From the NCBI GenBank assembly GCA_964544375.1, contig CAZJCO010000001.1, positions 1-25,104 of the forward strand: a stretch of DNA of 25,104 bases, given 5' to 3'. Source of the stretch: an uncultured Myxococcales bacterium (GTDB lineage: Bacteria > Desulfobacterota > Binatia > UBA1149 > SPBQ01). This document shows, in pieces, positions 6,797 to 20,709 of the stretch. The notes below the pieces were generated by a model, which searched no databases, was not told the origin of the DNA, and saw nothing but the letters and a program-made list of their open reading frames with translations. Numbering within the stretch: the stretch's first letter is position 1; each line of letters begins with the position of its first letter. The translations under genes were made by a program, and so were the position numbers.

Positions 6797-7366
6797 GTGG
6801 AGCTTAGCGACCCCGAGCTCGTCGAACGCGGCAGGTCCGGCGATCGGAGAGCGCTGCAGATCCTGGTTGAACGCTACCAGCGTAGGGTCCTCGGCGTCGT
6901 CGTCGGGATGGTGCGGAATCCCGAAGACGCGCGAGAAATCGTCCAGGAAGCTTTTGTCCGTGCGTTTCGTGGTCTGGAGCGGTTCAAAGGGGATTCCTCA
7001 TTTTACACCTGGCTCTATCGTATCGCCGTCAATCTCGCCATCGATGCTCAACGAAAGGACGGTAAACGTACGCACGTCGAATTCGATGAGTCGCAACCGC
7101 CGGCCGATGCCCCGTTGGCAATGGGCGGCAGAACGAAAGGTGCGGATCCGTACGAGGCGGTCCGCAACCGGGAGTTGGGAGAAAAGATTTTCCGCGCAAT
7201 TGACGGTTTGACGCCTGATCATCGGGCGGTCATACTGCTGCGGGAAATCGAAGGTTTGACGTACGAAGAGATCAGTCAGACGCTGGGTTGCTCCATGGGG
7301 ACCGTGATGAGTCGGCTTCATTACGCGCGCAAGAAGCTCCAGGACAAACTACAAGAGTTGCTGTGA
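6797..7366 (+). CDS. ECF RNA polymerase sigma factor (RpoE/SigW-like)
   Basis: Region 2 (DAREIVQEAFVRAF...FYTWLYRIAVN) and region 4 (LREIEGLTYEEISQTLGCSMGTVMSRLHYARKKL). GTG start with GGAG upstream. Confidence 0.95.
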   Translation: MELSDPELVERGRSGDRRALQILVERYQRRVLGVVVGMVRNPEDAREIVQEAFVRAFRGLERFKGDSSFYTWLYRIAVNLAIDAQRKDGKRTHVEFDESQPPADAPLAMGGRTKGADPYEAVRNRELGEKIFRAIDGLTPDHRAVILLREIEGLTYEEISQTLGCSMGTVMSRLHYARKKLQDKLQELL

Positions 7367-7375
7367 GGTGATGAG

Positions 7376-7960
7376 GTGACGCGTATTCCCGATTGTCGCG
7401 AGTTCGAGTCGAAACTGGACTCCTATCTAGACGCCGAACTGCCGCACGATGAGATGTCGGCGTCGGCGGCGCACGTACGGGGCTGTGCCAAGTGTGATGC
7501 GATCGTCACGCGATATCAGGAAACCAGGGCGTTACTGACAACGGCTGTAGCGGAAAGCGCTGCAGCCGTTGACGTTTCTGGGCTGTGGCAAAACATCGAC
7601 CGCTCGCTGGAACCGCTGGGTTCGCCTCTACGCAGACGTTGGACGAATTGGCTTGGTCTGCTTGTGGGTGACGGATCGGGTCTGTCGTCGTGGCGGCTCG
7701 ATTGGCGCATGGGCACGGCAGCGGCGTTTGCCGCGGCCGCGGCCGTGGTGGTCGTCGGATTGGCCTGGCAGCTGCGCGGTCCGGGTCCGATTTCCTCCGG
7801 TCGTGTTGCGACGGCGCCGGCGGTACAGGTTGATGCTGTCGAGGTTGCGGCAGGTCATACGGTGACGACCTGGACGCGGCCTCGGACACATACCCGCGTG
7901 ATTTGGGTATCCGACTCCAACGCTGGATTTGGCTTTACCAATGTCAGCGACGGCCGCTAG
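7376..7960 (+). CDS. Zinc-binding (ZAS, zf-HC2) transmembrane anti-sigma factor
   Basis: C...HVRGCAKC (HxxxCxxC), one TM segment (AAAFAAAAAVVVVGLAW), short extracytoplasmic tail; lies directly after the ECF gene. Confidence 0.85.
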   Translation: MTRIPDCREFESKLDSYLDAELPHDEMSASAAHVRGCAKCDAIVTRYQETRALLTTAVAESAAAVDVSGLWQNIDRSLEPLGSPLRRRWTNWLGLLVGDGSGLSSWRLDWRMGTAAAFAAAAAVVVVGLAWQLRGPGPISSGRVATAPAVQVDAVEVAAGHTVTTWTRPRTHTRVIWVSDSNAGFGFTNVSDGR

Positions 7961-7966
7961 CGAGCC

Positions 7967-8446
7967 ATGCTAAAACGTCTGACCACGCTCCTGATACTAT
8001 TGTCCACGATCCTTGCCCCGCTCGTCGCTCTCGCCGGATCTCCGATCATTCAAATCTCGGCGGTTCTCGCTTCCCACGATAAGAAACAGTTCGACCCACG
8101 TCTTCGCGACTTGCGTTCGGATTTACGCGCGCTGCCGTTCAAGGGTTATCAGCTCTACGGTATTCATTCGTGCCGGCTGGAAAGTGGCGATCAGTGCGGC
8201 ATGGATCTTCCCGGCGGAGACTATCTGCACGTGATGGCGGTCGAGCAGACCGACCGTTATCTGAAGATGCGGCTGTTGGTCAACCGAAACAATCGTCCCG
8301 TATTGGTTACCGACATTACGCTGAATCGGGACGCCAACGTGATCATCAAAGGCCCAAGGTCGCAGCAAGGCGCGATCGTTCTCGGGATCCGTGCGCAACG
8401 CGGTCGCGCGGATACGCCCGCTGCCGTGGGTAAGGCCCGTCGCTGA
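7967..8446 (+). CDS. Hypothetical exported protein
   Basis: Signal-peptide-like N-terminus (MLKRLTTLLILLSTILAPLVALA), beta-rich mature part with two Cys, 6 nt after the anti-sigma stop. Confidence 0.75.
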   Translation: MLKRLTTLLILLSTILAPLVALAGSPIIQISAVLASHDKKQFDPRLRDLRSDLRALPFKGYQLYGIHSCRLESGDQCGMDLPGGDYLHVMAVEQTDRYLKMRLLVNRNNRPVLVTDITLNRDANVIIKGPRSQQGAIVLGIRAQRGRADTPAAVGKARR

Positions 8447-8754
8447 TGGCCGATTGGGGGTTCTCGGGTCTCTACAGCAGGGCCGAGGAGCAGGTCCGCG
8501 GACTCGTTGATGCCTTCCAACGGGAGAGCCGGGACGCCGGCATGTCGGCGTTGATCACGCCGGTCGATCCGTTCAACCGTGCGAGTTTCTTGACACCACT
8601 GGTCGCCGCCGTTGGCGTTGCCGGTGTACTCTTCCTCTCGAGCGTTGCTGCGGGTGCTTTGATAGCCGCGGCGGTGGCTTTGTTGGCAGTCTATTTTCTA
8701 TTGACGGAAGTCTTCGGTTACGAGATCGAACTGGCGATGCCGCCCGGCGCCTGA
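8446..8754 (+). CDS. Hypothetical small membrane protein
   Basis: ATG overlaps the upstream TGA; two hydrophobic helices in the C-terminal half. Confidence 0.68.
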   Translation: MADWGFSGLYSRAEEQVRGLVDAFQRESRDAGMSALITPVDPFNRASFLTPLVAAVGVAGVLFLSSVAAGALIAAAVALLAVYFLLTEVFGYEIELAMPPGA

Positions 8755-8772
8755 AGCGCCGGGCGGCATCGC
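8734..8772. terminator. Perfect 17-bp hairpin between convergent genes (probable bidirectional terminator or stabiliser)
   Basis: GCGATGCCGCCCGGCGC-ctgaa-GCGCCGGGCGGCATCGC, next to the convergent sat stop at 8774. No classical U-tract directly adjacent. Confidence 0.65.
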
Positions 8773-8773
8773 G

Positions 8774-9934
8774 TCAGCTTTTCGTCGCATCCCTCAGAAT
8801 TGCGGCTACCTCGGCGCGCGTGAATTCGGGTGGCGGCAGTTGGCCCTGGCTGAGCATTTTGCGAACGCGGGTGCCGCTTAGGAAAACGTGCGCATCCTTG
8901 TCGTGCGGGCAGGTCTTGGTTGACGCCATGCCTTGGCAGAGCTTGCAGTAGAAGGTGTGCTCGTAGTTGATGCAGGTGATTCCGATCTCTCCCGGCGCGA
9001 ACTCCTTGAAGATCTCCTGCGCGTCGTAAGTGCCGTAGTAATTGCCTACTCCAGCGTGGTCGCGGCCGACGATGAAATGGGTGCAGCCGTAGTTCTGACG
9101 CATGAGCGCGTGGAGGATTGCTTCTCGAGGACCGGCGTAATGCATGTTCGCCGGCAGCACCGAGAGCAGGACGCGGTCGGCCGGATAGTAGTTCTCGAGT
9201 AGCACCTGATAGCAGCGCATGCGGACATCGGCCGGGATGTCGTCGCTCTTGGTCTCGCCTACCAGCGGGTGCAGTAGCAGACCGTCGACCATCTCGAGAG
9301 CGCACTTCTGAAGATACTCGTGCGCGCGATGAACCGGATTGCGCGTTTGGAAGGCGACGATCGTACGCCATCCGCGCTCGCGAAACGCCGCGCGCGTCTG
9401 TGCTGGTTCGAGTCGGTGCTCGGCAAACGGCAAGCCCGACGGATGCCTCAGCATGGTGATCCGTCCGGCCAGGTAGATATCGCCCTGGGCGTAGACCGCG
9501 GCGACTCCGGGATGGGCCTCATCCGTCGTACGGTAGACCTTTTCGGCTTCGACGCGTTTGTCCGGCTGGTAGCGGCTGCAGAGGTGAAGGATTGCAAGCA
9601 CGTCGCCGTTTTCGTCGGCGAGGGCGACGTCGTCTCCGTCCGTCAGGCGTTCGGCTTCCTCGCAGGTGACGGTGAGGGTGATCGGAATCGGCCACACCAG
9701 ACCGTTGGCCAAGCGCATGTCCTGCACGACCGACTCGTAGTCCTCACGACCCATGAAGCCGTCGAGCGGACTGAATCCGCCGATTGCCAGCATTTCCAGA
9801 TTGGCTCGTTTGCGCGCATCCAATACCAGGCGGGGTAGGTCGGCACTCTTGTCGTCCCAGGCTGCTCGCTCTTCGTCATCGGCCATCCGATGGACCAAAC
9901 TGCCACCATGTGGCGCGATTGCGTCTTCAGGCAT
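8774..9934 (-). CDS. sat: Sulfate adenylyltransferase (ATP sulfurylase, Sat type)
   Basis: [40 protein letters not shown] motifs. 386 aa, with no APS-kinase fusion. Confidence 0.97.
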
Positions 9935-10039
9935 TTCCTTTTCCTTTCCTCCGTGAATAGTGCGGGTCCTGGCGGGTGCTCAGGGGTCGCCCGCCGCAAC
10001 TCTATCCGAATCCGCTTGTGCGCCCAAATCGGGCCGGTC

Positions 10040-11473
10040 TCAGTTGGGGTAGACGCCAAGGAGCGGCCAGTACAGCAACACGGTTGCGTTGAATGCCAAC
10101 CAGGCGAGAACCCCCATCAGCATGCCGGGAACGATGATGTCGCGCAGGCGCAGATAGCCCGAGGAATAGGCAATTGCGTTGGCCGGCGTTCCAATCGGAA
10201 AAGCGAACGCGAGACCGGCGGGGATTGCGACGGCCGGCGCTACGACCGAGAGTTGAATGCCGACTTCTCGCGCGAGACCAATTCCGACTGGCATCATCAG
10301 TGCCACCACCGCCGAATTGCTGATTGCCTCGGTCAGGATCCAGGAGGTAAGGGACAACGCCGCGCAGACCGTGGGCGGCGACACGGCCCAGAGGCCGATG
10401 GTCCGGTCTGCGAGCCATCCTGCCGCGCCGGAGACGTCGAGCGCCTTGCCCAAGCAGATGGCGCCTCCGTACATCAAGATGATTCCCCAGTTGACGTATT
10501 CCTCTACATCCCGCCATGCTACCAACCGCAGCGCGAATAGAACTACGACGGCGAGAATCGCAACGTTGGCCAGCCCTAGCCGATGGCCGAAAAACACCCA
10601 GGTGGCGACTGTACAGAGCATGATCAGGCCGATCGCCTTTTCTTCAATCGTAGCTCGACCGAGGGCGGCAACGCGTTGACTGAGTACTTCTTCGGCCTGG
10701 CTGACGCTGTCGATGTCGATCGGAAACCAGTGCGTGATGACGCCGTAGCCGACCAACAACATCGCGCCGACGACCGGCAGGGCGTGCAAGCTCCAAGAGA
10801 GAAAAGTAAAGGAAGACTCTCCCGTCACCTGCTCGAGGATGGCCAATGCGAGGGGCGCCCTTCCTCCGCCCAGCAGGGTCGCCACGCCGCCGATCGTCGA
10901 GCCCCAGGCCATGGCGACGAAGAGGGCCTTGCCGTAGGAGCTCCGCAGCTGCCGCAGGCCGAGTACGGTGGCAATCTCGGCGACGATCGGGAAGTTCATT
11001 GCTGCCACGGCGTGCTCTGACATCCAGAACGAAAGGAACGCATTGAGGAGGAAGATCGCCACCAGTAGGCGGCGCGGCGAGTGGCCGAACCTTCTCAAAA
11101 CCAGCAGGCTGAGGCGGGTAGACAGACCCGACTTCATCAGGCAAGCCGCCAGGATGAACGCTCCGAGAATGAAAAAGACGGCCGAATTGCCGAACAGGGC
11201 GTAGGCTTCTTCAGAGCCGAGAACTCCGGTCAACGGCAGTAGGGCAATTGCCAGGAGGCTCGTAATCATCAGCGGGAGGACGCTGAGGGCCCAGAAGACC
11301 ACGCAAAGCGCGAACACGGCGAGCGCTTGCTGCCCTTGGGCGGACAGTCCGGCCGGAGTGTCCGCGCTAGCGATCCACCAGTAGATTGCGACGCCCGCCA
11401 GTAGACGTAACAGACGGTTCGAGCGAGAAAGCAGCACCAGCCACAAAGGGCGCGTATCGACGACGACGTCCAC
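10040..11473 (-). CDS. DASS/SLC13 family anion:Na+ symporter, probably for sulfate or another sulfur oxyanion
   Basis: Highly hydrophobic, with STIGGVATLLGG, ISNSA and PIGTPANAIAY motifs. Start moved to GTG 11473, just after the radical SAM stop. Substrate inferred from adjacency to sat. Confidence 0.88.
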   Translation of the reverse strand: MDVVVDTRPLWLVLLSRSNRLLRLLAGVAIYWWIASADTPAGLSAQGQQALAVFALCVVFWALSVLPLMITSLLAIALLPLTGVLGSEEAYALFGNSAVFFILGAFILAACLMKSGLSTRLSLLVLRRFGHSPRRLLVAIFLLNAFLSFWMSEHAVAAMNFPIVAEIATVLGLRQLRSSYGKALFVAMAWGSTIGGVATLLGGGRAPLALAILEQVTGESSFTFLSWSLHALPVVGAMLLVGYGVITHWFPIDIDSVSQAEEVLSQRVAALGRATIEEKAIGLIMLCTVATWVFFGHRLGLANVAILAVVVLFALRLVAWRDVEEYVNWGIILMYGGAICLGKALDVSGAAGWLADRTIGLWAVSPPTVCAALSLTSWILTEAISNSAVVALMMPVGIGLAREVGIQLSVVAPAVAIPAGLAFAFPIGTPANAIAYSSGYLRLRDIIVPGMLMGVLAWLAFNATVLLYWPLLGVYPN

Positions 11474-11477
11474 TTGC

Positions 11478-12704
11478 CTACAGTCTCGATGCGTTGAAGG
11501 AGTCGCTGACGCGCTTGACGCGAAGGCGCCGTCGGAGTTTGGACAGACCGCGTACCGCTCGGCTGCCAATCCGCGAACGGTAGAAACTGCTGACGGCGAC
11601 ATCGATGCGGGCTTCGTCTCCTGCAAAAAAGCGAGCCTCGATCGGGGTGATTGCGTAACCGAGATCCCGCATGTGCTGAACGTTGATGCGCGCCGCACGA
11701 ACCCGCTCGTAAAGATGCGCATAGAGTGGGGTAACCTGCTCGGGATCCGGCGGCGCATGATTGCGGAGCGCGGTTTCTTCGAGAGGGCGGAACAACGACA
11801 GCACGGGGACTACGCCGGAAGAGGTAAGTTCGTCGATCCCGGCGAGGGTGGATTCGACTGGTTCCAGCCCGACGATGAGATCGCTCCAGACGGTGCCGCT
11901 CGGAAAGATGCGAGCGGCGTATTCGAGTGCACACAAGTAGCGTTCGCGACCGATGAGCTGGTTGCGACCGCGACAGATCGTGGCGAGAATTTCGGGATCG
12001 AAAATTTGCAGACTGTAGCTCAGGGCGTCGACACCGGATGCATAGCAGCGGTCGATCCAGCGGTCGTCGGCGGGCGGATGCACTTGAACGGCGACGAGGG
12101 TGTCGAAATGGCGTTTGACCGCTCGTACGTAGGGTTCGAGGAACGCAAAACCACCGTCCTCCGCTTCGAAGTGCCCGGTATTGAAATACACGAACTCGGC
12201 GGCGCCCTCGTCAAACGCCGCGCGTACGACTTCCAGGACCTCCTCGATGGGCCGCGGGGCGCGTACGACGCCGTCGGTCTGCGCGAGTGTGCAGAACTGG
12301 CAACCAAGGCCACGTGCGCTGAAGCCGCATGCCGAAGCGGGATCGATCGATAGGTAACCCGCGTGGACGGTGGCGACCTGCCACATCGGCGTACCCTCGG
12401 TGGTAGTGGCGCAATAGAAGCGGGGTGGGGCGATCAGGCTTACGGGCACTTGGGTGCCGTCTTCGCTGTTGCAAAGGAAAAAAGCGTCGTTTTCGCAGTC
12501 CAGCACGTACGGTGAGTCGGCGGCCATCGGGGTTGCGATCGGACACTCGGCGATAATGTCTTGAGGCAGAATGACTTCGAGACCGCGGCTAGCGAAATCG
12601 CGCGCAGCGGAAGCCGGGTTCAGTGTGGCCAGATCCGCCAGCGCGGGCGACAGTCGGATTCCCTTGACGGCGACATCGATCTTCAGCTCAACGGGGTTAC
12701 GCAA
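11478..12704 (-). CDS. Radical SAM protein with atypical CX8CX2C motif (MSMEG_0568/NitD-like)
   Basis: CGFSARGLGCQFC at 12329-12291; TIM-barrel motifs GVDALSYSLQIFD, SDLIVGLE and VVPVLSLFRP. Start set at TTG 12704, with GAGG upstream and overlapping the preceding stop. Confidence 0.86.
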   Translation of the reverse strand: MRNPVELKIDVAVKGIRLSPALADLATLNPASAARDFASRGLEVILPQDIIAECPIATPMAADSPYVLDCENDAFFLCNSEDGTQVPVSLIAPPRFYCATTTEGTPMWQVATVHAGYLSIDPASACGFSARGLGCQFCTLAQTDGVVRAPRPIEEVLEVVRAAFDEGAAEFVYFNTGHFEAEDGGFAFLEPYVRAVKRHFDTLVAVQVHPPADDRWIDRCYASGVDALSYSLQIFDPEILATICRGRNQLIGRERYLCALEYAARIFPSGTVWSDLIVGLEPVESTLAGIDELTSSGVVPVLSLFRPLEETALRNHAPPDPEQVTPLYAHLYERVRAARINVQHMRDLGYAITPIEARFFAGDEARIDVAVSSFYRSRIGSRAVRGLSKLRRRLRVKRVSDSFNASRL

Positions 12705-13206
12705 GGGGCGCCTCGTCAGCCGGCTCTGTCGGCCGTCGTTGCCATCCGAGCAGGACGCCAATCGCCCGGGCTGCGGCATCGCAGGCAGCGATTGCGTGGA
12801 GCAAGGTCGAAACCGGGGCGCCCGCGGCCGCGCCGTCGTCGCTCTGCGAGCGATGGCACTCGGAGCGGCCCGACGACGGTGCCTTGCTTGCCGTCACGCC
12901 GCCGAGCAGCTTGCAGCCGACGATGCGGTACCAGACGATCGGAGTTCTGTCGTCGGGCCCCCGAGGGCTCAAGCTCTCTCCGTCGGGTTCGCGATCGGCG
13001 AGGATCAGGCAGTCCGCCCGGCGATCCGGTTCCCGCGTGACCTGGACGCCGGTCGCGCGAAGATATCGCTCGAGTATGTCTAGAGCTTCGGTGTGTCCCT
13101 GTAGCTCAACGATGCTGGCGAGCAGTCGCTCCTGGCCGCTGCCGCCGACTTCGGGAATGACGATCTGACGAGCGTAGCGCTCGATATCGCGTTCGGATAG
13201 AGGCAC
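12697..13206 (-). CDS. Degenerate ThiF/MoeB (E1-like) protein: keeps the N-terminal RYxRQ but lacks the ATP-binding motifs
   Basis: ERYARQIVIPEVGGSGQERLLAS matches the MoeB N-terminus. GxGxxG is replaced by GHTEAL, and SNLxRQ and the CxxC pairs are missing. The C-terminal helix (AIAACDAAARAIGVLLG) is kept. Confidence 0.75.
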   Translation of the reverse strand: MPLSERDIERYARQIVIPEVGGSGQERLLASIVELQGHTEALDILERYLRATGVQVTREPDRRADCLILADREPDGESLSPRGPDDRTPIVWYRIVGCKLLGGVTASKAPSSGRSECHRSQSDDGAAAGAPVSTLLHAIAACDAAARAIGVLLGWQRRPTEPADEAPLA

Positions 13207-13213
13207 GAGAACA

Positions 13214-13453
13214 TCACTCGATGACGTTCTTTTCGATCGGTTCGACTTTCACGCCCTGCTCGGCGATCCACGCAACGGCTTTCTCGATCTCGTCTTCGTC
13301 GCCTTCGAGTTCGAGGGCGACGATTCCGATGTGGTCCGAAATCGAGGCGCCGCGAATGTTCGTCACGACCCGGAACTTGTGCCCGACGTGGTAGATGATC
13401 GGTTCCTTGATCTGATCTTCGCTATAGGTGAGGTAAAATCGATAAATCGCCAT
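13214..13453 (-). CDS. Stand-alone NIL domain protein
   Basis: 79 aa: MAIYRFYLTY...KEPIIYHVGHKFRVVTNIRGASI...ALELEGDEDEIEKAVAWIAEQGVKVE. GAGGAG RBS before ATG 13453. Confidence 0.87.
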   Translation of the reverse strand: MAIYRFYLTYSEDQIKEPIIYHVGHKFRVVTNIRGASISDHIGIVALELEGDEDEIEKAVAWIAEQGVKVEPIEKNVIE

Positions 13454-13454
13454 G

Positions 13455-14423
13455 TCATGCTCCTCGAAACTGGGGTCGCGGCAGATCCTTCCAGCCAGCC
13501 CAAAGATTGGTCGACAGGTAGCGGTCGCCGAAATCACAGAAGATCGTGACGACGCAACCGCGTTCTAGTGTCGATGCCACTTCGAGAGCGCCCACCATGG
13601 CGGCGCCGCTCGACTGCCCAACGAGAATGCCGTCTTCGCGGGCCAGCCGGTAGACCATGTCGTAGGCGGCTTCGGTCGCCACCCCGATTTTGTGGTCGAG
13701 TTCCTCTTCGTGATAGATGCCGGGGACGATCGAGCTCTCCATATGTTTGAGGCCCTCGATGCCGTGGAATGCGTCGTCTGGTTCGACCGCCACGACCTGG
13801 ACGTGCCGGCTCTGTGATTTCAAGAAACGTCCGGTGCCCATCACCGTGCCGCCGGTTCCGATGCTGGCGACGAAGTGCGTTACGGCCCCCTTGGTCTGCT
13901 GCCAAATCTCCGGTCCGGTAGTCAGAAAGTGCGCCTCCGGATTGGCCTCGTTGAAGTACTGATCGGGCTTGAAGTAGCTATCGCGGTCGGCCTCGTAAAT
14001 CTCGCGGCAGCGCAGAAGCGCACCGTCGGATCCCTCGAGGCCGCTGGAATAGATTGCCTCGGCGCCGTAGGCGGCCAGGATGCGTTTGCGTTCGGTCGAG
14101 ACGTTGTCCGGCATGACCAGGCGAACGGGATACCCGAAGGCCGCGCCGATCATCGCCAGAGCAATGCCCGTGTTGCCCGACGTCGAGTCGAGAATCGTCT
14201 TTCCCGGCGTCAACTCTCCGGACTCGATGCCGCGACGGATCATGTTCCACGCGGGACGGTCCTTGACCGAACCGGCGGGATTGAAGCCTTCGAGCTTGGC
14301 GAACACCTCAACGTCAGGAGCAATCTCACGAGAGACGTTGCGGATGCGTACCAGCGGTGTCTTGCCGACGATGTCGAGAACACGCGGCACGCGAGTGCCG
14401 GCGATGGGGCTGGTCTCGCTCAT
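13455..14423 (-). CDS. cysM: PLP-dependent cysteine synthase family protein (CysM-like, probably carrier-thiocarboxylate dependent)
   Basis: VGKTPLV, KLEGFNPAGSVKDR (PLP lysine), STSGNTG, SIGTGGT and GQSSGA motifs. Follows the sulfur carrier gene. Confidence 0.9.
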   Translation of the reverse strand: MSETSPIAGTRVPRVLDIVGKTPLVRIRNVSREIAPDVEVFAKLEGFNPAGSVKDRPAWNMIRRGIESGELTPGKTILDSTSGNTGIALAMIGAAFGYPVRLVMPDNVSTERKRILAAYGAEAIYSSGLEGSDGALLRCREIYEADRDSYFKPDQYFNEANPEAHFLTTGPEIWQQTKGAVTHFVASIGTGGTVMGTGRFLKSQSRHVQVVAVEPDDAFHGIEGLKHMESSIVPGIYHEEELDHKIGVATEAAYDMVYRLAREDGILVGQSSGAAMVGALEVASTLERGCVVTIFCDFGDRYLSTNLWAGWKDLPRPQFRGA

Positions 14424-14491
14424 GCCTATCGCGCACCGATTTCCAAGCGATGGTTGCGTGTCGTCGCCGGCATCTTGGCGAGCTCCCGCTG

Positions 14492-14773
14492 CTAGCTGCG
14501 GCCGCCAGCGATGGCGGGAACGATCGACACCTCGTCTCCCTCTTTGACTGCGGAATCGAGATTCTCGAGAAAACGAATATCGTCACCGTTCAGATAGAGA
14601 TTGACGAAGCGCCGGACCGCACCGTCGGCGTCGCAGATTCTTTCTTTGATGCCCGGGTGCTTTTGTTCTAGGTCGTCGAGAATCGCGCCGATCGAGTTGC
14701 CGTCGACAGACACCGACTCTTGACCGCCGGTGAACTTCCTCAGCGGAGTGGGGATACGAACTTGAACTGCCAT
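14492..14773 (-). CDS. MoaD/ThiS/CysO family ubiquitin-like sulfur carrier with C-terminal GG-RS
   Basis: MAVQVRIPTPLRKFTGG...RRFVNLYLNGDDIRFL...VSIVPAIAGGRS*. AGGAGG RBS. Confidence 0.95.
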   Translation of the reverse strand: MAVQVRIPTPLRKFTGGQESVSVDGNSIGAILDDLEQKHPGIKERICDADGAVRRFVNLYLNGDDIRFLENLDSAVKEGDEVSIVPAIAGGRS

Positions 14774-14829
14774 CTACTGTTCCTCCTGATGAACGTGTCC
14801 TTATGCGCGAGGCGTTCGCGGCGCGCAAC

Positions 14830-16092
14830 TCATGCCGACGCGGCTTTCGCCGCCGCTTGATCGCTAAGTTTCCGATAGAGTTCGTCGAAATCATCGAGTT
14901 TTGCGGCAATTCGTCGGGGCTCGGCGACCGAGTCCATCACTGCCTCGAGGGTCTTGTATCCGTTCCCCGTAACACTGATTACGATCGATTCGTCCGCTGG
15001 AATCCTCCCCTGTTCGATCAGTTTCTTAGCGACCGCCACGGTGGTACCGCCCGCCGGCTCCGTGAAGATTCCTTCGGTTTCGGCAAGCAGCTTGATCCCG
15101 GCGACGATCTCTTCGTCGGTAGCCGCTTCTCCCCAGCCGCCACTGTTGCGGACCGCCTTGAGCACGTAGTAACCGTCGGCCGGGTTGCCGATGGCGATCG
15201 ACTTCGCGATCGTGTTCGGCTTTACCGGTTCGATCAAGTCGCTCTCGCGATGCAACGCGTGAACGACCGGTGCGCATCCGGCCGCCTGAGCCGTGTAGAT
15301 TTTCCACGGGCTGTCCTTTACCAGACCGACCGCGACCAGTTCTTCGAAGGCCTTGGCGACCTTGGGCAGGATCGTGCCGCCGGCGGTAGGAACCACGATG
15401 TGACGTGGAAGCTTCCACCCCAACTGCTCGGCGACTTCGAAGCCGTAGGTCTTGGCGCCTTCGGTGTAGAACGGCCGCAGATTGATGTTGGCGAATGCCC
15501 ACTGGTACTTGTCCGCGATCTCCGTGCACAGGCGGTTGACGTCGTCGTAATTGCCCGAGATCGCGACGGTCGTTGGCTGATAGACGGCCGAACCGATGAC
15601 TTTACCGCGCTCGAGATTGTCCGGAATGAAAATGAAACAGCGAAGACCAGCGCGCGCCGCATGGGCGGACACCGAGTTGGCGAGATTGCCCGTCGAGGCG
15701 CAGGAAACCGTGTCGAAACCGAACTCGATTGCTTTGGTAATTGCTACCGATACGACACGATCCTTGTAAGAAAAGGTCGGGTGGTTGACCGAATCGTCCT
15801 TGACGTAGAGCTCCTTGACCCCCAGCGCTTCTGCCAGCCGGTCCGCACGAACCAGCGGGGTGCAGCCGGAATGCAGACCGATCTTCGGCTCGCTCTCAAT
15901 CGGGAGCAACTCCCGATAACGCCATAGATTGCGCGCGCGTCCTTCGATTTTTCGCCTTGTAACGGTCGACGCGATGGCTTCGTAGTCGTAACAGACCTCC
16001 AGCGGTCCGAAGCAGAATTCGCAGACGTGATGAGGGCCCAGTTCGTAAGCCTCACCGCACTCGCGGCACTTCAATCCGGTGATCAGTGACAT
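14830..16092 (-). CDS. thrC: Threonine synthase-like PLP enzyme (fold type II) with N-terminal Zn ribbon
   Basis: CRECG...CEFC, LWRYRELLP, PTFSYKDR (PLP lysine), CASTGNLA, EGAKT, TGNGYK. Family is secure; the actual reaction is uncertain (see findings). Confidence 0.9.
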   Translation of the reverse strand: MSLITGLKCRECGEAYELGPHHVCEFCFGPLEVCYDYEAIASTVTRRKIEGRARNLWRYRELLPIESEPKIGLHSGCTPLVRADRLAEALGVKELYVKDDSVNHPTFSYKDRVVSVAITKAIEFGFDTVSCASTGNLANSVSAHAARAGLRCFIFIPDNLERGKVIGSAVYQPTTVAISGNYDDVNRLCTEIADKYQWAFANINLRPFYTEGAKTYGFEVAEQLGWKLPRHIVVPTAGGTILPKVAKAFEELVAVGLVKDSPWKIYTAQAAGCAPVVHALHRESDLIEPVKPNTIAKSIAIGNPADGYYVLKAVRNSGGWGEAATDEEIVAGIKLLAETEGIFTEPAGGTTVAVAKKLIEQGRIPADESIVISVTGNGYKTLEAVMDSVAEPRRIAAKLDDFDELYRKLSDQAAAKAASA

Positions 16093-16826
16093 GCTTCAGG
16101 CCTCCTTGCTTGCTCGCGATGCAGACGGCTGCAGCAGCGGCACCGCGGATCTCGAGGAAAATCGACCAGTCTCCAGCGCTGGCCGCGAGCTTGGTAGATC
16201 GTCAGGACACCCGGGCGCCATGCTGGATCTCCGGTCAGCGCTCGCACCGCCGAAAGCGCTTGTACGAAGCCGATGACTCCGGCAACCGGGGAGAGTATGC
16301 CGAGGCGGTCGCATCCTTCTGGAAGTTCGCTGCCGGCCTCACGCGAAGGAAAAGCACACTCGAGACAGGCCGAGCGTCCGGGGTCGATGCCCATGGCCTG
16401 TCCTGCGGTGCGCACCACGCCTCCGTAGGACATCGGCCGACCGACTTCTGTAGCGGTTGCGTTGATGAGAAACTTACTTGCCGGGTCGTCCGTGGCGTCG
16501 ATGATGAAGTCGTGGCTGCGCATCAGTTCGGCAGCGTTGCTTTGTTCGAAACGTCCGACCAGCGGCTGCAGCCGGCAGCTTCGGAACATCCCGGCCAGGG
16601 TCGCCGCCGCGGCCTCCGCCTTGGGGCGGCCGATGGCGTCGTCGTCGAACAGGATTTGTCGCTGCAGGTTCGACAACTCGACCACGTCCGCGTCGAGCAG
16701 GGTGACATGCCCCACGCCGCCGCGCGCCAGTCCGAGCGCGGCGGGACATCCGAGCGCACCGCAACCTACGACGAGTACCCGCGCCTGGGCCAGGATCTCG
16801 GCACTGTTGTCGGTCTCTGCGTACAA
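16083..16826 (-). CDS. ThiF/MoeB/HesA family E1-like adenylyltransferase lacking the N-terminal RYxRQ helix
   Basis: VLVVGCGALG, LLDADVVELSNLQRQ, GRPKA, IIDATDD, CLEC, EGCDRLG, RDPRCRCC. The track's ATG 16880 lies inside the riboswitch, so the likely start is in-frame TTG 16826 preceded by AAGAGG. Confidence 0.86.
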   Translation of the reverse strand: MYAETDNSAEILAQARVLVVGCGALGCPAALGLARGGVGHVTLLDADVVELSNLQRQILFDDDAIGRPKAEAAAATLAGMFRSCRLQPLVGRFEQSNAAELMRSHDFIIDATDDPASKFLINATATEVGRPMSYGGVVRTAGQAMGIDPGRSACLECAFPSREAGSELPEGCDRLGILSPVAGVIGFVQALSAVRALTGDPAWRPGVLTIYQARGQRWRLVDFPRDPRCRCCSRLHREQARRPEACH

Positions 16827-16859
16827 AAAAACCTCTTCCGAGAATGGCAAGGAAGAGGC
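16825..16859 (-). terminator. Intrinsic terminator of the riboswitch expression platform
   Basis: Minus strand GCCUCUUCC-uugccauucuc-GGAAGAGGU (9-bp stem), ending in a run of 7 U. Confidence 0.9.
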
Positions 16860-16873
16860 TGCTCGCTTTCCTC

Positions 16874-16990
16874 GCCTCATCTCTCGCCCTTTCGTCTCGG
16901 GCAGTAGGATTTAGCACCAGCACCCACCTAGGGGCGGGCCGGTTGCTGTGGCTTCGCAGGGCCTATTCCCTCCACCACTCTCAATAAGGC
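16874..16990 (-). ncRNA. SAM-I (S-box) riboswitch aptamer
   Basis: Minus strand GCCUUAUUGAGAGUGGUGGAGGGAAUAGGCCCUGCGAAGCCACAGCAACC...GGUGCUAAAUCC...GAUGAGGC. P1 GCCUUAU/AUGAGGC, P2 GUGGU/GCCAC with kink-turn GA pairs, P3 GCAACC/GGUGC, P4 GCCC/GGGC. The pseudoknot shows a compensatory UAG/CUA in place of the usual UGG/CCA. Confidence 0.93.
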
Positions 16991-16996
16991 AGGTGA

Positions 16997-17025
16997 AGCG
17001 TAGCTAATCGCCGGCATGGTGTCAA
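16997..17025 (-). promoter_or_regulatory. Sigma70 promoter of the riboswitch leader
   Basis: TTGACA (17025-17020), 17 nt, TACGCT (17002-16997). The aptamer begins 6 nt downstream. Confidence 0.78.
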
Positions 17026-17055: not shown

Positions 17056-17835
17056 ATGACCGCCGGACCCTGCGAAGAGAGTTCCGTGGCCGGCCGGCAC
17101 ATACCCTTGCGGGGCGCATTCAACTTCCGCGATCTCGGCGGTTTCCGCGGCGACAGCGGCCGTCTGGTGACCGACGGTCGTGCTTACCGGGCCGACGCAC
17201 TGCACCGGCTCGAAGCCGAAGATGTCCGCTTGCTCGAGACCCTCTCTATCGAATGCTTCTTTGACCTGCGTAGTGAGGCGGAGTTGGCCAAGGACGGGAT
17301 CGGGGCCTTCGAGGCCGCCAACGGCCGGCACTGCCATGTTCCTCTGGTGAGCGTGAGCCTGAGCCCCTTCGATCCCTCGATCAATTGGCGCGAGATGAAT
17401 CTTCTCGATCGCTATCTCGAGATGCTCAAGGACGGCGGAGCCGCGATCCGCGCCGTCCTCGACGGTTTCCTGGAGGTCGATCGCGGTGCCGTCGTTTTTC
17501 ACTGTAGCGGCGGAAAAGACCGAACGGGTGTCGTCGCTGCCGTGTTGCTGCGGACGCTCGGCGTATCCGACGAGGACATCGTCGAAGACTACGCGAGCTC
17601 GGAAGGTTATCTGCGTTCGATCATTCTGCGTTATCGAGCCGAACTCGAGGCCATTGGGCTCGATCGGGATGCGGTCGAATACCTGACCTCTAGCAAGCCG
17701 GAACGCATGCGCCGCATGCTCAGCGAACTCGACCGAGTTTGGGGATCGACGGAAGGCTACCTCGACACGATCGGCTTCGGTGCCGACCGGCGGCAGCGCT
17801 TGCGCTCGCGCCTGTTGCTCGCGCCCTCGTCCTGA
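17056..17835 (+). CDS. Tyrosine-protein phosphatase family protein (Y_phosphatase3 / PtpB-like)
   Basis: NFRDLGG, FFDLRSEAE, P-loop FHCSGGKDRTG (CX5R), IVEDYASS. Confidence 0.9.
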   Translation: MTAGPCEESSVAGRHIPLRGAFNFRDLGGFRGDSGRLVTDGRAYRADALHRLEAEDVRLLETLSIECFFDLRSEAELAKDGIGAFEAANGRHCHVPLVSVSLSPFDPSINWREMNLLDRYLEMLKDGGAAIRAVLDGFLEVDRGAVVFHCSGGKDRTGVVAAVLLRTLGVSDEDIVEDYASSEGYLRSIILRYRAELEAIGLDRDAVEYLTSSKPERMRRMLSELDRVWGSTEGYLDTIGFGADRRQRLRSRLLLAPSS

Positions 17836-18499: not shown

Positions 18500-18567
18500 T
18501 CGGTAAGATTAGCGGGGATTGTTCGCCAGCGCCACGTTCGTGCCGGCAGAACTGCGCCTGGTCGCGT

Positions 18568-18594
18568 TTGACCGTCTGTGGCTGAACGCATAAT
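18568..18594 (+). promoter_or_regulatory. Possible sigma70 promoter of the ArsA-like pair
   Basis: TTGACC, 15 nt, CATAAT; the spacer is short. Confidence 0.3.
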
Positions 18595-18607
18595 GGCCTA
18601 GGCAACC

Positions 18608-19564
18608 ATGACAGCGTCTCGCCTTCATCTCGTCGTCGGCAAGGGCGGCGTCGGCAAATCGACGGTTACCGCGGCGATGGCCCTGGCGCTGGCGCAGCAG
18701 GGGCGACGCGTGTTGGCACTCGAACTCGATGGTCCCGGCGGCTTGGCACGCGCTTTCGGGGTCACGCCCGATCGACCGGCCAGTTTTCTCCGTGTGCGCC
18801 ACCGGCTCTCGGTCGGCTTCGTCGACGGCCAATCCGCCCTGGCCGAGTACCTGGGGCTCGTCATTCCCATCCGCCGTCTGCTCGATACCGTCTTCGGTAG
18901 TCGAATCTACAAGAACTTTGTCGCTGCCGCACCCGGCCTCAAAGAGCTGATGACGATGGGGAAAGTTTGGTACGAGTTCCAGCGTTGCGGAGACGATGGT
19001 CGCCCGGTCTGGGACGCGATTGTCGTCGACGCGGGAGCGTCGGGGCACAGTTTGCAATATCTGCAGATGCCGGCGGCGGCTGCGAGAACCTTCCGCAGCG
19101 GTCTGGTTCACCGCGAATCCCAGCGCGTAGCAGCGCTGCTCGGTGACGCGGCAACGACCCGTGTCCACGTTGTCACTGTGGCCGAGGACATGCCGCTGGC
19201 CGAAGCGCTCCAGATCCTCGCGCGATTGCGCGGAGAGCTGCGGCTTCCGGTCGGACGACTGTTCGTGAATCGCTGGCGCGCCGAGGCCCCGGAGGGCGCT
19301 CGGGCCGTGCTCGAGCGCCTGAGTACGGCGGCGCCCGCGGGCGCGGATGGCGCGTCGCTGACGATTCTCGAAGGCGTTCGGAGCGCGGGCTATCGCTGCG
19401 TGCAATGGGCCGAACTGCAGCGGCGCAGCCTTGATCGCTTCCAGGCACGAATGGGTCTGCAGCCGATTCTGCTGCCGCTGCTTGCGGTCGAAGAGTTCGG
19501 CACGGACGAGGTCGAGAGGTTGGCGAGTTTGGTCGCGCACGGGCCACGAGAGGTCGTCTTGTGA
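18608..19564 (+). CDS. ArsA/Get3 family ATPase, subunit A (Rv3679/BagA-like)
   Basis: VGKGGVGKST deviant Walker A, AAAPGLKEL, VVDAGASGH, VAEDMP, FVNR. Confidence 0.88.
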   Translation: MTASRLHLVVGKGGVGKSTVTAAMALALAQQGRRVLALELDGPGGLARAFGVTPDRPASFLRVRHRLSVGFVDGQSALAEYLGLVIPIRRLLDTVFGSRIYKNFVAAAPGLKELMTMGKVWYEFQRCGDDGRPVWDAIVVDAGASGHSLQYLQMPAAAARTFRSGLVHRESQRVAALLGDAATTRVHVVTVAEDMPLAEALQILARLRGELRLPVGRLFVNRWRAEAPEGARAVLERLSTAAPAGADGASLTILEGVRSAGYRCVQWAELQRRSLDRFQARMGLQPILLPLLAVEEFGTDEVERLASLVAHGPREVVL

Positions 19565-20709
19565 GTCTGGCGCCATTGATCGAAGGTCACCGGGTCCTGG
19601 TTTGCGTCGGCAGCGGAGGGGTCGGCAAGACCACCACGGCTGCCGCTCTGGCGCTGCAGGGGGCACTCATGGGGCGGCGAGCGATGGTGCTCACGATCGA
19701 TCCCGCCAGACGTCTGGCGCAATCGCTCGGCCTAGAGGCGCTGCGCAGTGGTGGGCAGCCGATCGACGAGGAGATCTTCGCCGACGCCGGTTTGCAACCG
19801 CAGGGGAGTCTCTGCGCCGGAATGCTCGAACAGGAGAGCGCCTGGGACCAGTTCATCGCGCGCCATGCCCCCAACGAGGAACTGCGCGAGACCATTCTCA
19901 GCAATGAGTTCTACCGCCATTTGTCGCGCTCGTTTGCGGGCTCGGCGGAATACATGGCGATCGAAGAACTGGGGCGCATCGAGGAAAGCGGCGAATATGA
20001 CCTGATCGTTCTCGATACACCGCCGACCGGGCATGCGCTGGACTTCCTCGAAGCGCCCAAGCGCCTGGACGACTTTCTCGACCGATCTGTGGTCGGTTGG
20101 TTCGTGCGCCCCTATGCTTCGGCCGGCTGGAGCGCGTGGAAGACGGCGAGCCGGAGCGTTCGGTTTCTCATGCAGCGAATCGAGGACGCGACCGGCAGCC
20201 AGTCACTGCGGCAGATCTCGGAGTTCTTCGTCGCGATGGAGAGCCTGTTCGATGGGATCAACGAACGAGGGCGCAAGGTTCGCTCCCTCTTGACGAGCGA
20301 GCGAACCGCGTTTGTGCTGGTCGCAGGTCCGCAAGAGCAGGTCCTCGGAGAGAGCGAGCTGCTGACGAGCAAGATGCGTGAACTCGCGATGCCGTTGAGG
20401 GGTGTGGTGATGAACCGTGTTTATCCGATGCCCGCCGGCGGCGAGTCCGAACCGACGGAGGCCGACGTTCGACGCGCCTTGCGTGCGGCCCATGATGGTG
20501 CGATCGCGTCGGAAATCGAGGACTGGCTCGTCGCCCGCTATCTAGAGGGCTGCACGATCGCGCGCTCGGAGGAGATTCGTCGGGAGTCTTTCGAGGCTGG
20601 GCTTGACGACGACGTGCGTTGCGTCGCGGTTCCGGAGTTCGAAGCAGACGTGCACGACCTCGTTTCGTTGGCCCGGGTGGGCCATGTGCTGGTAACCACG
20701 ACGGACTGA
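19561..20709 (+). CDS. ArsA/Get3 family ATPase, subunit B (Rv3680/BagB-like)
   Basis: VGSGGVGKTT, TIDPARRLA, GSAEYMA, VLDTPPTGHALDFLEAP, VVMNR. GTG overlaps the upstream TGA. Confidence 0.9.
   Translation: MSLAPLIEGHRVLVCVGSGGVGKTTTAAALALQGALMGRRAMVLTIDPARRLAQSLGLEALRSGGQPIDEEIFADAGLQPQGSLCAGMLEQESAWDQFIARHAPNEELRETILSNEFYRHLSRSFAGSAEYMAIEELGRIEESGEYDLIVLDTPPTGHALDFLEAPKRLDDFLDRSVVGWFVRPYASAGWSAWKTASRSVRFLMQRIEDATGSQSLRQISEFFVAMESLFDGINERGRKVRSLLTSERTAFVLVAGPQEQVLGESELLTSKMRELAMPLRGVVMNRVYPMPAGGESEPTEADVRRALRAAHDGAIASEIEDWLVARYLEGCTIARSEEIRRESFEAGLDDDVRCVAVPEFEADVHDLVSLARVGHVLVTTTD

Follow-up and report, generated by a model that had tools for sequence, protein, structure and literature searches.

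The stretch of DNA analysed here, referred to throughout as the window, comprises 25,104 nucleotides (nt) of contig CAZJCO010000001.1 (assembly GCA_964544375.1) from an uncultured bacterium labelled Myxococcales and placed by GTDB in the Binatia. A block of nine genes occupies positions 8774-17025 of its minus strand, behind a SAM-I riboswitch, a class that responds to S-adenosylmethionine (SAM). The genes, all co-oriented, encode in order a catalytic E1, a ThrC-like enzyme, a ubiquitin-like sulfur carrier, CysM, a NIL-domain protein, a degenerate second E1 (pseudo-E1, hereafter pE1), a radical-SAM-fold protein here called X, a DASS anion symporter and the ATP sulfurylase Sat. The families of all nine proteins were assigned with Pfam and NCBIfam profiles, and the readings given below are based on sequence, synteny, predicted structure and genomes of uncultured organisms. 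For the block as a whole, it is rather probable that a single SAM-repressed unit supplies both sulfur amino acids by way of a protein thiocarboxylate. Its features, listed from the 5' side, are as follows.

16997-17025, minus strand: candidate sigma-70-type promoter, TTGACA (17025-17020), 17 nt of spacer and TACGCT (17002-16997), read by eye
16874-16990, minus strand: SAM-I (S-box) aptamer, RF00162, 70.9 bits against a gathering score of 44.4, E = 5.7e-15, full-length over model positions 1-108
16825-16858, minus strand: expression platform with an intrinsic terminator, stem CCTCTTCC (16858-16851)/GGAAGAGG (16839-16832) followed by T7 (16831-16825), read by eye
16083-16826, minus strand: catalytic E1 (ThiF/MoeB-type adenylyltransferase), 247 amino acids, Pfam ThiF 199 bits over profile positions 15-238 only
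14830-16092, minus strand: ThrC-like enzyme dependent on pyridoxal phosphate (PLP), 420 amino acids, with an N-terminal Cys4 zinc ribbon, PALP 225 bits, NF006050 304 bits
14492-14773, minus strand: ubiquitin-like sulfur carrier (CysO/MetO-like), 93 amino acids, Pfam ThiS, NF041918 SAMP1
13455-14423, minus strand: CysM-type cysteine synthase, 322 amino acids, TIGR01136 cysKM 352 bits (cut-off 344), TIGR01138 cysM 382 bits
13214-13453, minus strand: stand-alone NIL domain protein, 79 amino acids, Pfam NIL 54.7 bits
12697-13206, minus strand: pE1, minimised ThiF/MoeB fold, 169 amino acids, of which residues 2-55 only match MoeB/ThiF models
11478-12704, minus strand: radical-SAM-fold protein X, 408 amino acids, NF045502 variant_rSAM 195 bits (cut-off 125), PF04055 36.8 bits (cut-off 29.5)
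10040-11473, minus strand: DASS (SLC13-type) anion symporter, 477 amino acids, TIGR00785 252.8 bits (cut-off 198.6), Na_sulph_symp 183 bits
8774-9934, minus strand: Sat, homo-oligomeric ATP sulfurylase, 386 amino acids, NF003166 571.7 bits (cut-off 387), PUA_2 and ATP-sulfurylase domains
8734-8772, minus strand: terminal hairpin, 18 bp, GC-rich, directly 3' of the Sat stop codon, fold of -46.3 kcal/mol, z = -7.4

SAM-I was the single family found when the whole window was scanned with Rfam. An earlier note, made from the sequence of this DNA, had described nine co-oriented genes behind one promoter and a SAM-I riboswitch; the gene block, the nine family assignments and the riboswitch were borne out by the profile scores, and the promoter stands as a candidate only. 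It lies 6 nt upstream of the aptamer and has a weak -10 box matching 3 of 6 consensus positions, and a consensus promoter scan called zero sites. One promoter for the operon is plausible. The terminator stem, of 8 bp and GC-rich, lies 16 nt downstream of the aptamer and also spans the likely Shine-Dalgarno sequence (ribosome-binding site) of the E1 gene. A terminator scan performed no better than on shuffled sequences, and this leader terminator was overlooked by it. The RNA fold of the leader displays alternative pairings, and T-runs, translated as FFL or FLY, occur in the same position of many orthologous leaders. Judged from these features, the leader should be able to shut expression off, through termination or sequestration of the ribosome-binding site, and SAM-dependent switching is predicted. 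Because the start listed earlier for the E1 gene, ATG 16880, falls within the aptamer, the most probable start codon is TTG 16826, located where the T-run ends and after the terminator. Starts were also corrected for the NIL gene (ATG 13453, giving 79 amino acids), for X (TTG 12704) and for DASS (GTG 11473). The junctions are, in order, -10 (E1/ThrC), 56, 68, 1, 7, -8 (pE1/X), 4 and 105 nt; the TTG of X overlaps the pE1 stop codon, the GTG of DASS lies 4 nt past the stop codon of X, and Sat, beyond the 105-nt gap, has a good ribosome-binding site, GGAGG. Most genes of the unit are translationally coupled, and co-transcription is presumed across the gaps of 56, 68 and 105 nt. None of 200 shuffled sequences folded as stably as the terminal hairpin, which is likely to mark the end of the transcription unit and to be shared with the convergent gene.

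The centre of the block is formed by the carrier and the PLP enzymes on either side of it. The best match of the carrier in the PDB is CysO of Mycobacterium tuberculosis (3dwg_C, in the CysM-CysO complex 3DWG; E = 3.9e-25), and the CysM-type protein matches E. coli CysM at 1.8e-73 and M. tuberculosis CysM (3dwg_A/3dki) at approximately 1e-60. By its sequence relationships, this enzyme would use the carrier thiocarboxylate for cysteine. The ThrC-like enzyme, whose best PDB matches are threonine synthases, adjoins the carrier in 32 of the 39 loci described below, and by analogy it may be a MetM-type homocysteine synthase that depends on the same thiocarboxylate. Thus the CysO-like carrier is flanked by two PLP enzymes, as the earlier note had proposed, one of the CysM type and one of the ThrC type. 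Cysteate synthase was considered as the identity of the ThrC-like gene and rejected (TIGR03844, 60 bits against 325). MetM of Streptomyces albulus is reported to form homocysteine from O-phosphohomoserine and the MetO thiocarboxylate (Hasebe et al. 2024, Appl Environ Microbiol 90:e01247-24, cited in PMC12172450 and in bioRxiv 10.1101/2024.10.14.618325), a SAM riboswitch lies upstream of metM/metO (PMC12172450), and the route is listed with MoeZ-type activation in GapMind 2026. The present block is like that of S. albulus in having a ThrC homolog beside a sulfur-carrier gene with a SAM riboswitch upstream, and differs in that it also contains CysM, NIL, pE1, X, DASS and Sat and lacks Mec.

The NIL protein shows a weak match to the C-terminus of MetN, in which NIL is the methionine-binding regulatory domain. 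The domain is also found in an archaeal homocysteine system (PMC5764234). Its restriction to loci with the ThrC-like gene (see below) suggests a function in the homocysteine/methionine branch and not one connected with the carrier or X, and this fits both of these. Two further kinds of pathway were considered for the whole block and rejected. An anti-phage system with ubiquitin-like protein and E1 (of the Bil, CBASS Cap2 or 6A-MBL type) was represented by a 68-bit partial match against a cut-off of 320, and the context of SAM riboswitch, CysM, ThrC-like enzyme and Sat argues for metabolism and against it. A thiazole (ThiFSGH) or molybdopterin (MoaA/MoaD/MoeB) pathway was rejected because ThiG, ThiH, MoaA and MoaE are all missing.

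Conservation of the block was analysed with one genome per species, which gave 47 loci, mapped by tblastn with the nine window proteins. Presence was counted over 39 non-redundant loci with enough upstream DNA, except for DASS (46 loci) and Sat (36 loci).

E1: 39 of 39 loci
Carrier: 39 of 39 loci
CysM: 38 of 39 loci
pE1: 38 of 39 loci
ThrC-like enzyme: 32 of 39 loci
NIL: 25 of 39 loci
DASS directly 3' of X: 42 of 46 loci
Sat within 5.5 kb: 20 of 36 loci

The approximately 47 species-level genomes are nearly all Binatia, or metagenome-assembled genomes (MAGs) with the same synteny labelled "Deltaproteobacteria" or "Myxococcales". The order E1-(ThrC)-carrier-CysM-(NIL)-pE1-X-DASS-(Usp)-(Sat) does not vary across the loci, and three long contigs on which genes were called independently and labelled with Pfam gave it as well. 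Divergence among the loci is deep, with identities down to 37% for X and down to 37-58% for E1. The arrangement is more than chance. Co-occurrence, the check proposed in the earlier note, was examined in this way, and the radical-SAM-fold, DASS and sat genes do accompany the carrier module in other genomes.

The related loci were searched with a covariance model constructed from four of the aptamers, and a SAM-I aptamer was found upstream of the E1 gene in 29 of them. The riboswitch is present in 29 of the 32 loci with the ThrC-like gene and in 0 of the 7 without it (Fisher p = 8e-6, uncorrected for phylogeny), and NIL in 25 of the 32 and 0 of the 7, likewise uncorrected. Because they are found only where the ThrC-like gene is, riboswitch and NIL are assigned to the methionine branch. 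From this distribution, E1-carrier-CysM-pE1-X-DASS appears to be a core cysteine module, and the ThrC-like gene, NIL and the SAM riboswitch appear to travel jointly as a methionine branch. At three loci (L003, L018 and L019) the ThrC-like gene is present and the aptamer was undetected; their regulation may depend on a diverged riboswitch or on another mechanism. The non-Binatia clusters L052 and L059 have an Rrf2-family regulator instead of a riboswitch. In L031, L050 and L051 (MFD long-read MAGs), the matches to DASS, CysM, the ThrC-like enzyme and the carrier are broken into consecutive pieces in different frames, which may be assembly indels or real pseudogenes. A Usp gene lies between DASS and the next gene in L001 (12741-13205; a thermophilic Binatia MAG) and in L046 (12797-13315; Armatimonadetes); the window has no Usp, only the 105-nt gap at that position.

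At the 3' end of the block, DASS and Sat probably import sulfate and activate it, as judged from their families. DASS adjoins Sat or CysDN in other lineages also, and the substrate of DASS would accordingly be sulfate, possibly also thiosulfate. Where Sat follows DASS it falls into two classes, approximately 60-75% or only approximately 33-37% identical to the Sat of the window, seen over L010, L013, L015-L017, L020, L021, L025, L029, L032, L035, L036, L038, L039, L042, L043, L045 and L048; evidently a different type of ATP sulfurylase was recruited to the same position. At L055, CysD and CysN take the place of Sat.

Between this arm and the E1 module lies X. Its layout comprises an N-terminal beta domain, a TIM (triosephosphate isomerase) barrel, a BioB/LipA-like IVGLEP motif and a basic C-terminal helix, LRRRLRV. 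The cluster site is CX8CX2C (C126, C135 and C138, with the aromatic residue F137 before the last cysteine) rather than the canonical CX3CX2C. No second cluster site is present, and the one further conserved cysteine, C244, is not invariant. X falls below the cut-off of TIGR04043 (134 against 304 bits), and we know of no characterised member of the NF045502/TIGR04043-type group. The AlphaFold2 model is confident, with a predicted local distance difference test (pLDDT) score of 84.8, and has HydE, LipA, BioB, NifB and ThiH as its top Foldseek matches (E ~1e-7, TM-score ~0.43), a likeness to radical-SAM enzymes that is generic, and a profile of X found no match in the PDB by sequence even at E <= 10. 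ThiH and MoaA were rejected by profile as identities of X. With BioB, LipA, HydE, ThiH and the members of NF045502 and TIGR04043, X shares the TIM barrel, a three-cysteine site with an aromatic residue and the GxIxGxxE-like IVGLEP; it differs from them in the spacing of CX8CX2C, the lack of an auxiliary cluster site, the C-terminal tail and the existence of members that lack the cysteines. The family is large, with 311 clusters below 1e-30 among 1.84 billion representative proteins; homologs are plentiful in metagenomes, and the named ones are Candidatus Binatia. The literature search returned no paper on this radical-SAM family or on a radical-SAM protein together with Sat and a carrier.

It can be observed from the loci outside the Binatia that X keeps company with DASS in unrelated lineages, which differ strongly in G+C content. 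The gene orders are given below, a double colon marking a fusion.

L052: Rrf2-Sat-X-DASS
L046 and L053 (Armatimonadetes): Sat-X-DASS-Usp-JAB-CysM
L055: TusA-X::DASS-CysD-CysN
L057: TusA-X-DASS
L054: ThiF-ThiS-JAB::X
L059: Rrf2-ThiS-JAB-ThiF-X-DASS

The ATP sulfurylase that accompanies X is thus Sat in some of these loci and CysDN in others, and the relay is either ThiS/E1/JAB or TusA. Fusions are represented by the proteins P0176 (X::DASS) and P0154 (Prok-JAB::X). The C-terminal tail LRRxLRV is invariant in the X subfamily and better conserved than the iron-sulfur (Fe-S) cysteines, and in the X::DASS fusion it stands directly before the first transmembrane segment. The contexts of P0146, P0165 and P0192 were read from contigs of 1.3-3 kb; despite its short contig, P0165 shows TusA-X-DASS. 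Distant relatives without the tail occur in unrelated gene contexts, for example P0192, which marks the edge of the X subfamily as drawn from tail and context.

Taken together, the adjacency in 42 of 46 loci, the fusions, the contexts in other lineages and the invariant tail point to a link between X and DASS. It is tentatively proposed, at somewhat less than an even chance, that X, on the cytoplasmic side, partners DASS by docking to it with the basic C-terminal helix and couples or gates the uptake of the sulfur oxyanion to the carrier relay. In the Binatia, its [4Fe-4S]/adenosyl-ligand site might then act as a SAM or redox sensor or serve a sulfur-handling step. Transporters that need, or are gated by, a small cytoplasmic sulfur-related partner are represented by YeeE/YeeD (TsuA/TsuB) in thiosulfate uptake and by the NIL (C2) domain of MetNI. 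The likeness to YeeE/YeeD extends to the TusA-family protein that precedes X and DASS in L055 and L057; the differences are that the transporter here is of the DASS family, that a radical-SAM-fold partner is without precedent and that NIL here is free-standing. No radical-SAM-fold protein is known to us that takes part in sulfate assimilation or partners a transporter. Two observations, which point in opposite directions, complicate this proposal. The cysteine triad and aromatic residue are invariant in 60 Binatia sequences, which favours true Fe-S/SAM chemistry there over a role in structure only; conversely, the members without these cysteines (below) argue against an essential radical step.

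An alternative, which the triad and F137 invariant in the Binatia would suit, is that X is a catalytic radical-SAM or Fe-S enzyme for the missing sulfur chemistry. It would take over the imported or activated oxyanion (adenosine 5'-phosphosulfate (APS), sulfite or thiosulfate) at the transporter and pass reduced sulfur on, either to the carrier adenylate bound by E1 or, elsewhere, to TusA. In this role X would stand in for the rhodanese of MoeZ and perhaps for CysH/Sir. X is the sole uncharacterised enzyme-like protein of the block and always lies between the E1 module and DASS/Sat, its gene is translationally coupled to that of pE1, and its nearest folds are the sulfur-handling HydE, LipA and BioB; furthermore, E1 lacks a rhodanese domain, no reductase is encoded in the window, and the pairing with Sat or CysDN and with ThiS or TusA in other lineages would suit such a role. 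However, tail-bearing relatives with identical synteny lack all three cluster cysteines (P0121-P0124 of the Armatimonadetes branch, P0220 of L059, and others), the fold likeness is the generic one noted above, the site has no second cluster or invariant C244 to accompany it, and cysH and sir may sit elsewhere in the genome. Moreover, no radical-SAM enzyme is known to us that reduces sulfur oxyanions. A catalytic X is for these reasons considered unlikely, if a good deal less so than the further alternatives below, and the partner of DASS is preferred. The earlier note had placed the radical-SAM enzyme where a reductase or JAMM protease would be expected. X appears to be tied to DASS instead: it is adjacent to DASS in unrelated lineages and fused to it in P0176, it co-exists with or is fused to JAB elsewhere, and several branches do without the Fe-S cysteines.

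Two minor observations concern the surroundings and annotation of X. PHP-domain proteins adjoin X clusters in two unrelated lineages (L052, 1370-2407, minus strand; L054, 2465-3007, plus strand). Some PHP enzymes hydrolyse 3',5'-adenosine bisphosphate, and such neighbours would fit a sulfate pathway that uses 3'-phosphoadenosine 5'-phosphosulfate. JGI labels the stand-alone X proteins P0082, P0103 and P0125, of approximately 408 amino acids, as 'solute carrier family 13 (sodium-dependent dicarboxylate transporter)', a label that they probably received in error from X::DASS fusions.

The activating enzyme of the block is split into two genes. The catalytic E1 carries GxGxxG, SNLQRQ, RPK, DATD, the cysteine of the catalytic loop and two CxxC motifs, and begins just approximately 17 residues before GxGxxG, so that the N-terminal RYxRQ arginine-finger helix is gone. 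Among the loci examined, only L001 (and L002, which duplicates it) has an E1 that retains this helix. E1 consists of the ThiF domain alone (residues 27-249 of the 265-amino-acid open reading frame), without a rhodanese domain, and scores 128 bits against the MoeZ model NF005902, the cut-off of which is 647. The pE1 protein is its complement. It retains the N-terminal arginine-finger helix (ERYARQ) and lacks GxGxxG, the SNLxRQ/K motifs, the catalytic cysteine and both CxxC zinc motifs. By sequence and fold, the finger helix is thus found in pE1 only, and the nucleotide-binding and catalytic motifs in E1 only. In the orthologs of pE1, the N-terminal LsdxQIERYsRQIxxPxxGxxGQxrLL is kept in all loci. 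A complete E1 stands at the pE1 position in L001 and L025, and the other loci display a stepwise loss of GxGxxG, SNLxRQ, the lysine, the catalytic loop and lastly the zinc motifs, down to forms of 150-170 residues. Thirteen positions of pE1 are invariant, including Y11, A12, R13 and Q14 of the arginine-finger motif and A140 of the AACDAAA helix; mean column identity in the C-terminal two thirds is 31%. The AlphaFold2 model of pE1 (pLDDT 79.8) is best matched in Foldseek by E. coli ThiF, MoeB and Uba4 (TM-scores of 0.53-0.63), and the inactive subunits SAE1 and APPBP1 are matched lower in the list.

In this family of enzymes, the arginine finger acts in trans at the neighbouring ATP site (R11 of ThiF, R14 of MoeB), and in yeast Tcd1-Tcd2 a degenerate paralog gives its arginine finger to the active one (PMC13139853). 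Eukaryotic E1s also combine one active and one inactive adenylation domain (PMC12355090). Since the helix is lost in E1 yet retained in pE1, an asymmetric heterodimer is inferred, to which pE1 would contribute the helix and a ThiF-like scaffold for dimerisation but no ATP site. On balance, we lean slightly towards an E1 that functions as such a heterodimer with pE1 supplying the arginine finger, a reading which draws on motifs and on a predicted fold. SAE1-UBA2, NAE1/APPBP1-UBA3 and Tcd1-Tcd2 are alike in having one active adenylation subunit and one degenerate subunit with an N-terminal arginine finger (PMC13139853, PMC12355090); by comparison with the eukaryotic E1s, those of the window are small bacterial proteins encoded four genes apart, without catalytic-cysteine or ubiquitin-fold domains, and their heterodimer is a predicted one. 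Two points count against the heterodimer. The arginine finger is reported to be non-essential in MoeB and ThiF (PMC13139853), so its loss from E1 need not force heterodimer formation. In profile-profile comparison, the short pE1 forms align to E1 over approximately 39 columns with a probability of 52%; given this weak alignment, the homology of pE1 rests on the N-terminal motif, the complete E1s in L001 and L025 and the predicted fold.

The weak conservation of the C-terminal two thirds of pE1, and the fact that the loci are nearly all of one lineage, would also suit a functionless, decaying duplicate beside an E1 that is a usual homodimer, the gene order being due to shared ancestry in one phylum. 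That is improbable, since the pE1 open reading frame is intact in 38 of 39 loci over deep divergence, the 13 invariant positions include the finger motif, the model is confident and ThiF-like, helix loss in E1 is complementary to retention in pE1, and pE1 is translationally coupled to X. It is more likely that pE1 is an obligate partner of E1, not the stand-in for a rhodanese or protease that had been suggested for this second E1-like protein; what was found is a minimised ThiF fold with the finger helix that E1 has lost.

A further feature of the block concerns the C-terminus of the carrier. In the window it reads SIVPAIAGG-RS, with two residues beyond GG and hence without a free C-terminal Gly-Gly. 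SIVPAIAGG is invariant among 42 carrier orthologs, of which 16 end at GG and 26 have 1-5 residues past it, most often R. Such residues require a trimming peptidase, and no JAB/Prok-JAB domain (Mec-type JAMM) was matched among the larger open reading frames of the window; JAB adjoins X in other loci (L046, L054 and L059). That X itself is the processing or maturation factor, trimming the carrier past Gly-Gly or freeing the amino-acid adduct as a JAMM protease (Mec/HcyD) would, is very improbable: the extended carriers, the lack of JAB in operon and window and the position of the JAB::X fusion (P0154, L054) directly downstream of a ThiS gene would suit it, but fusion or co-occurrence with JAB implies joint action and not replacement, the tie of X to DASS, Sat and TusA is equally strong in clusters that lack a nearby ThiS, and X is kept beside the 16 carriers that already end in GG.

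The mechanism that follows from the preferred readings can be described in stages. When SAM is bound to the leader, transcription would be terminated, and when SAM is low, the importer, the ATP sulfurylase, the carrier, the activating enzyme and the two PLP synthases would be made; both steps are proposed with good confidence. The RS extension past GG would be removed from the carrier first. E1, with moderate confidence as the asymmetric heterodimer with pE1, would then adenylate the C-terminal glycine of the carrier, and the acyl-adenylate would be converted to the thiocarboxylate. Subsequently, with good confidence, the thiocarboxylate would yield cysteine with CysM, and homocysteine with O-phosphohomoserine and the ThrC-like (MetM-type) enzyme. 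Three parts of the route have no gene in the window: the reduction that turns APS into sulfide, a sulfur donor for the adenylate and a peptidase for the carrier. Neither APS reductase, sulfite reductase, rhodanese nor JAMM was found among its larger open reading frames. A more speculative extension, which we regard as doubtful though not so improbable as the decaying duplicate, is that X and DASS form a sulfur-acquisition device that passes oxyanion sulfur directly to a protein carrier (as ThiS thiocarboxylate or TusA persulfide), bypassing free sulfide and CysH/Sir. If true, this would be a carrier-bound assimilation route, served in the Binatia by a bacterial asymmetric E1 heterodimer.

Several points weigh against the explanation of the block as one unit for both amino acids. 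Its co-transcription has to extend across the three longer gaps, of 56, 68 and 105 nt. The ThrC-like enzyme scores 304 bits against the NCBIfam threonine-synthase cut-off of 303, barely over it, so that its NCBIfam name would be threonine synthase, and the likeness to MetM is drawn from family, gene context and riboswitch. The 26 extended carriers need C-terminal trimming, with no peptidase in the operon or among the larger open reading frames of the window. The substrate of DASS is read from its Sat and CysDN neighbours.

The system can be compared with two further known ones. With CysO-CysM-Mec-MoeZ of M. tuberculosis it shares a ubiquitin-like carrier with an AGG tail, an adjoining CysM and a ThiF-family E1. 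In contrast to that system, E1 here is without rhodanese, no Mec/JAMM lies in the operon or the window, the carrier continues for two residues past GG and also serves a second PLP enzyme, and control is by a SAM riboswitch. HcyS/HcyD/HcyF/Sir/MetY of Wolinella succinogenes reportedly perform homocysteine synthesis by protein thiocarboxylate, with sulfate-assimilation genes clustered alongside. The operon is not the Wolinella system: its PLP enzyme is of the ThrC type and not the MetY type, and neither the JAMM protein HcyD nor a sulfite reductase (Sir) is present in the cluster. The core chemistry is known, namely that cysteine and homocysteine are made by way of a thiocarboxylate, with a SAM riboswitch in control (CysO/CysM, MetM/MetO), and the core differs from the known kinds in one shared carrier, an E1 without rhodanese, no clustered JAMM and an untrimmed carrier. 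The split E1 and the X-DASS module were described nowhere in the literature searched, and the function of X may be new. The combination of genes, which the earlier note did not recognise as a characterised pathway, is therefore familiar as regards the ThrC-like enzyme, carrier and SAM riboswitch, which correspond to MetM/MetO, and unrecognised as regards the split E1 and X-DASS.

The analysis extends the recent MetM/MetO-type pathway to a large uncultured phylum, with one carrier for both amino acids. If the heterodimer is true, E1/pE1 would be a bacterial case, in sulfur metabolism, of the asymmetry between active and inactive adenylation domains in eukaryotic E1s. Related genomes keep the intermediates, from two complete E1s (L001) to the remnant of 150-170 residues, and the origin of E1 asymmetry would thereby be experimentally approachable. 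X-DASS, whether X is a sensor or an enzyme, would represent an unannotated step in sulfur acquisition by many environmental bacteria. The literature searched on sulfur assimilation in the Binatia yielded nothing useful.

The flanks of the operon are housekeeping in character, with polA, an extracytoplasmic function (ECF) sigma/anti-sigma pair, an ABC-2 transporter, bamD, a tyrosine phosphatase, ArsA-like ATPases, lapB, nadD and proAB. At 6797-8754 (plus strand), the ECF sigma factor, a zf-HC2 anti-sigma factor and two small open reading frames (7967-8446 and 8446-8754, both plus strand and without Pfam match) converge on the operon end, and L001, L003 and L004 have the same sigma, anti-sigma and small-frame block 3' of the operon. 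Two consecutive ArsA-like/ParA-type ATPase genes at 18608-20709 (plus strand) adjoin the block in L004 too; a 385-amino-acid open reading frame on the minus strand (18509-19666) overlaps these genes, has no Pfam match and is probably spurious. The promoter side holds a divergent tyrosine phosphatase gene of the Y_phosphatase3 family (17056-17835, plus strand), whose ATG and the candidate -35 box are approximately 30 nt apart, and a Y_phosphatase3 gene is also a neighbour of the operon in L004.

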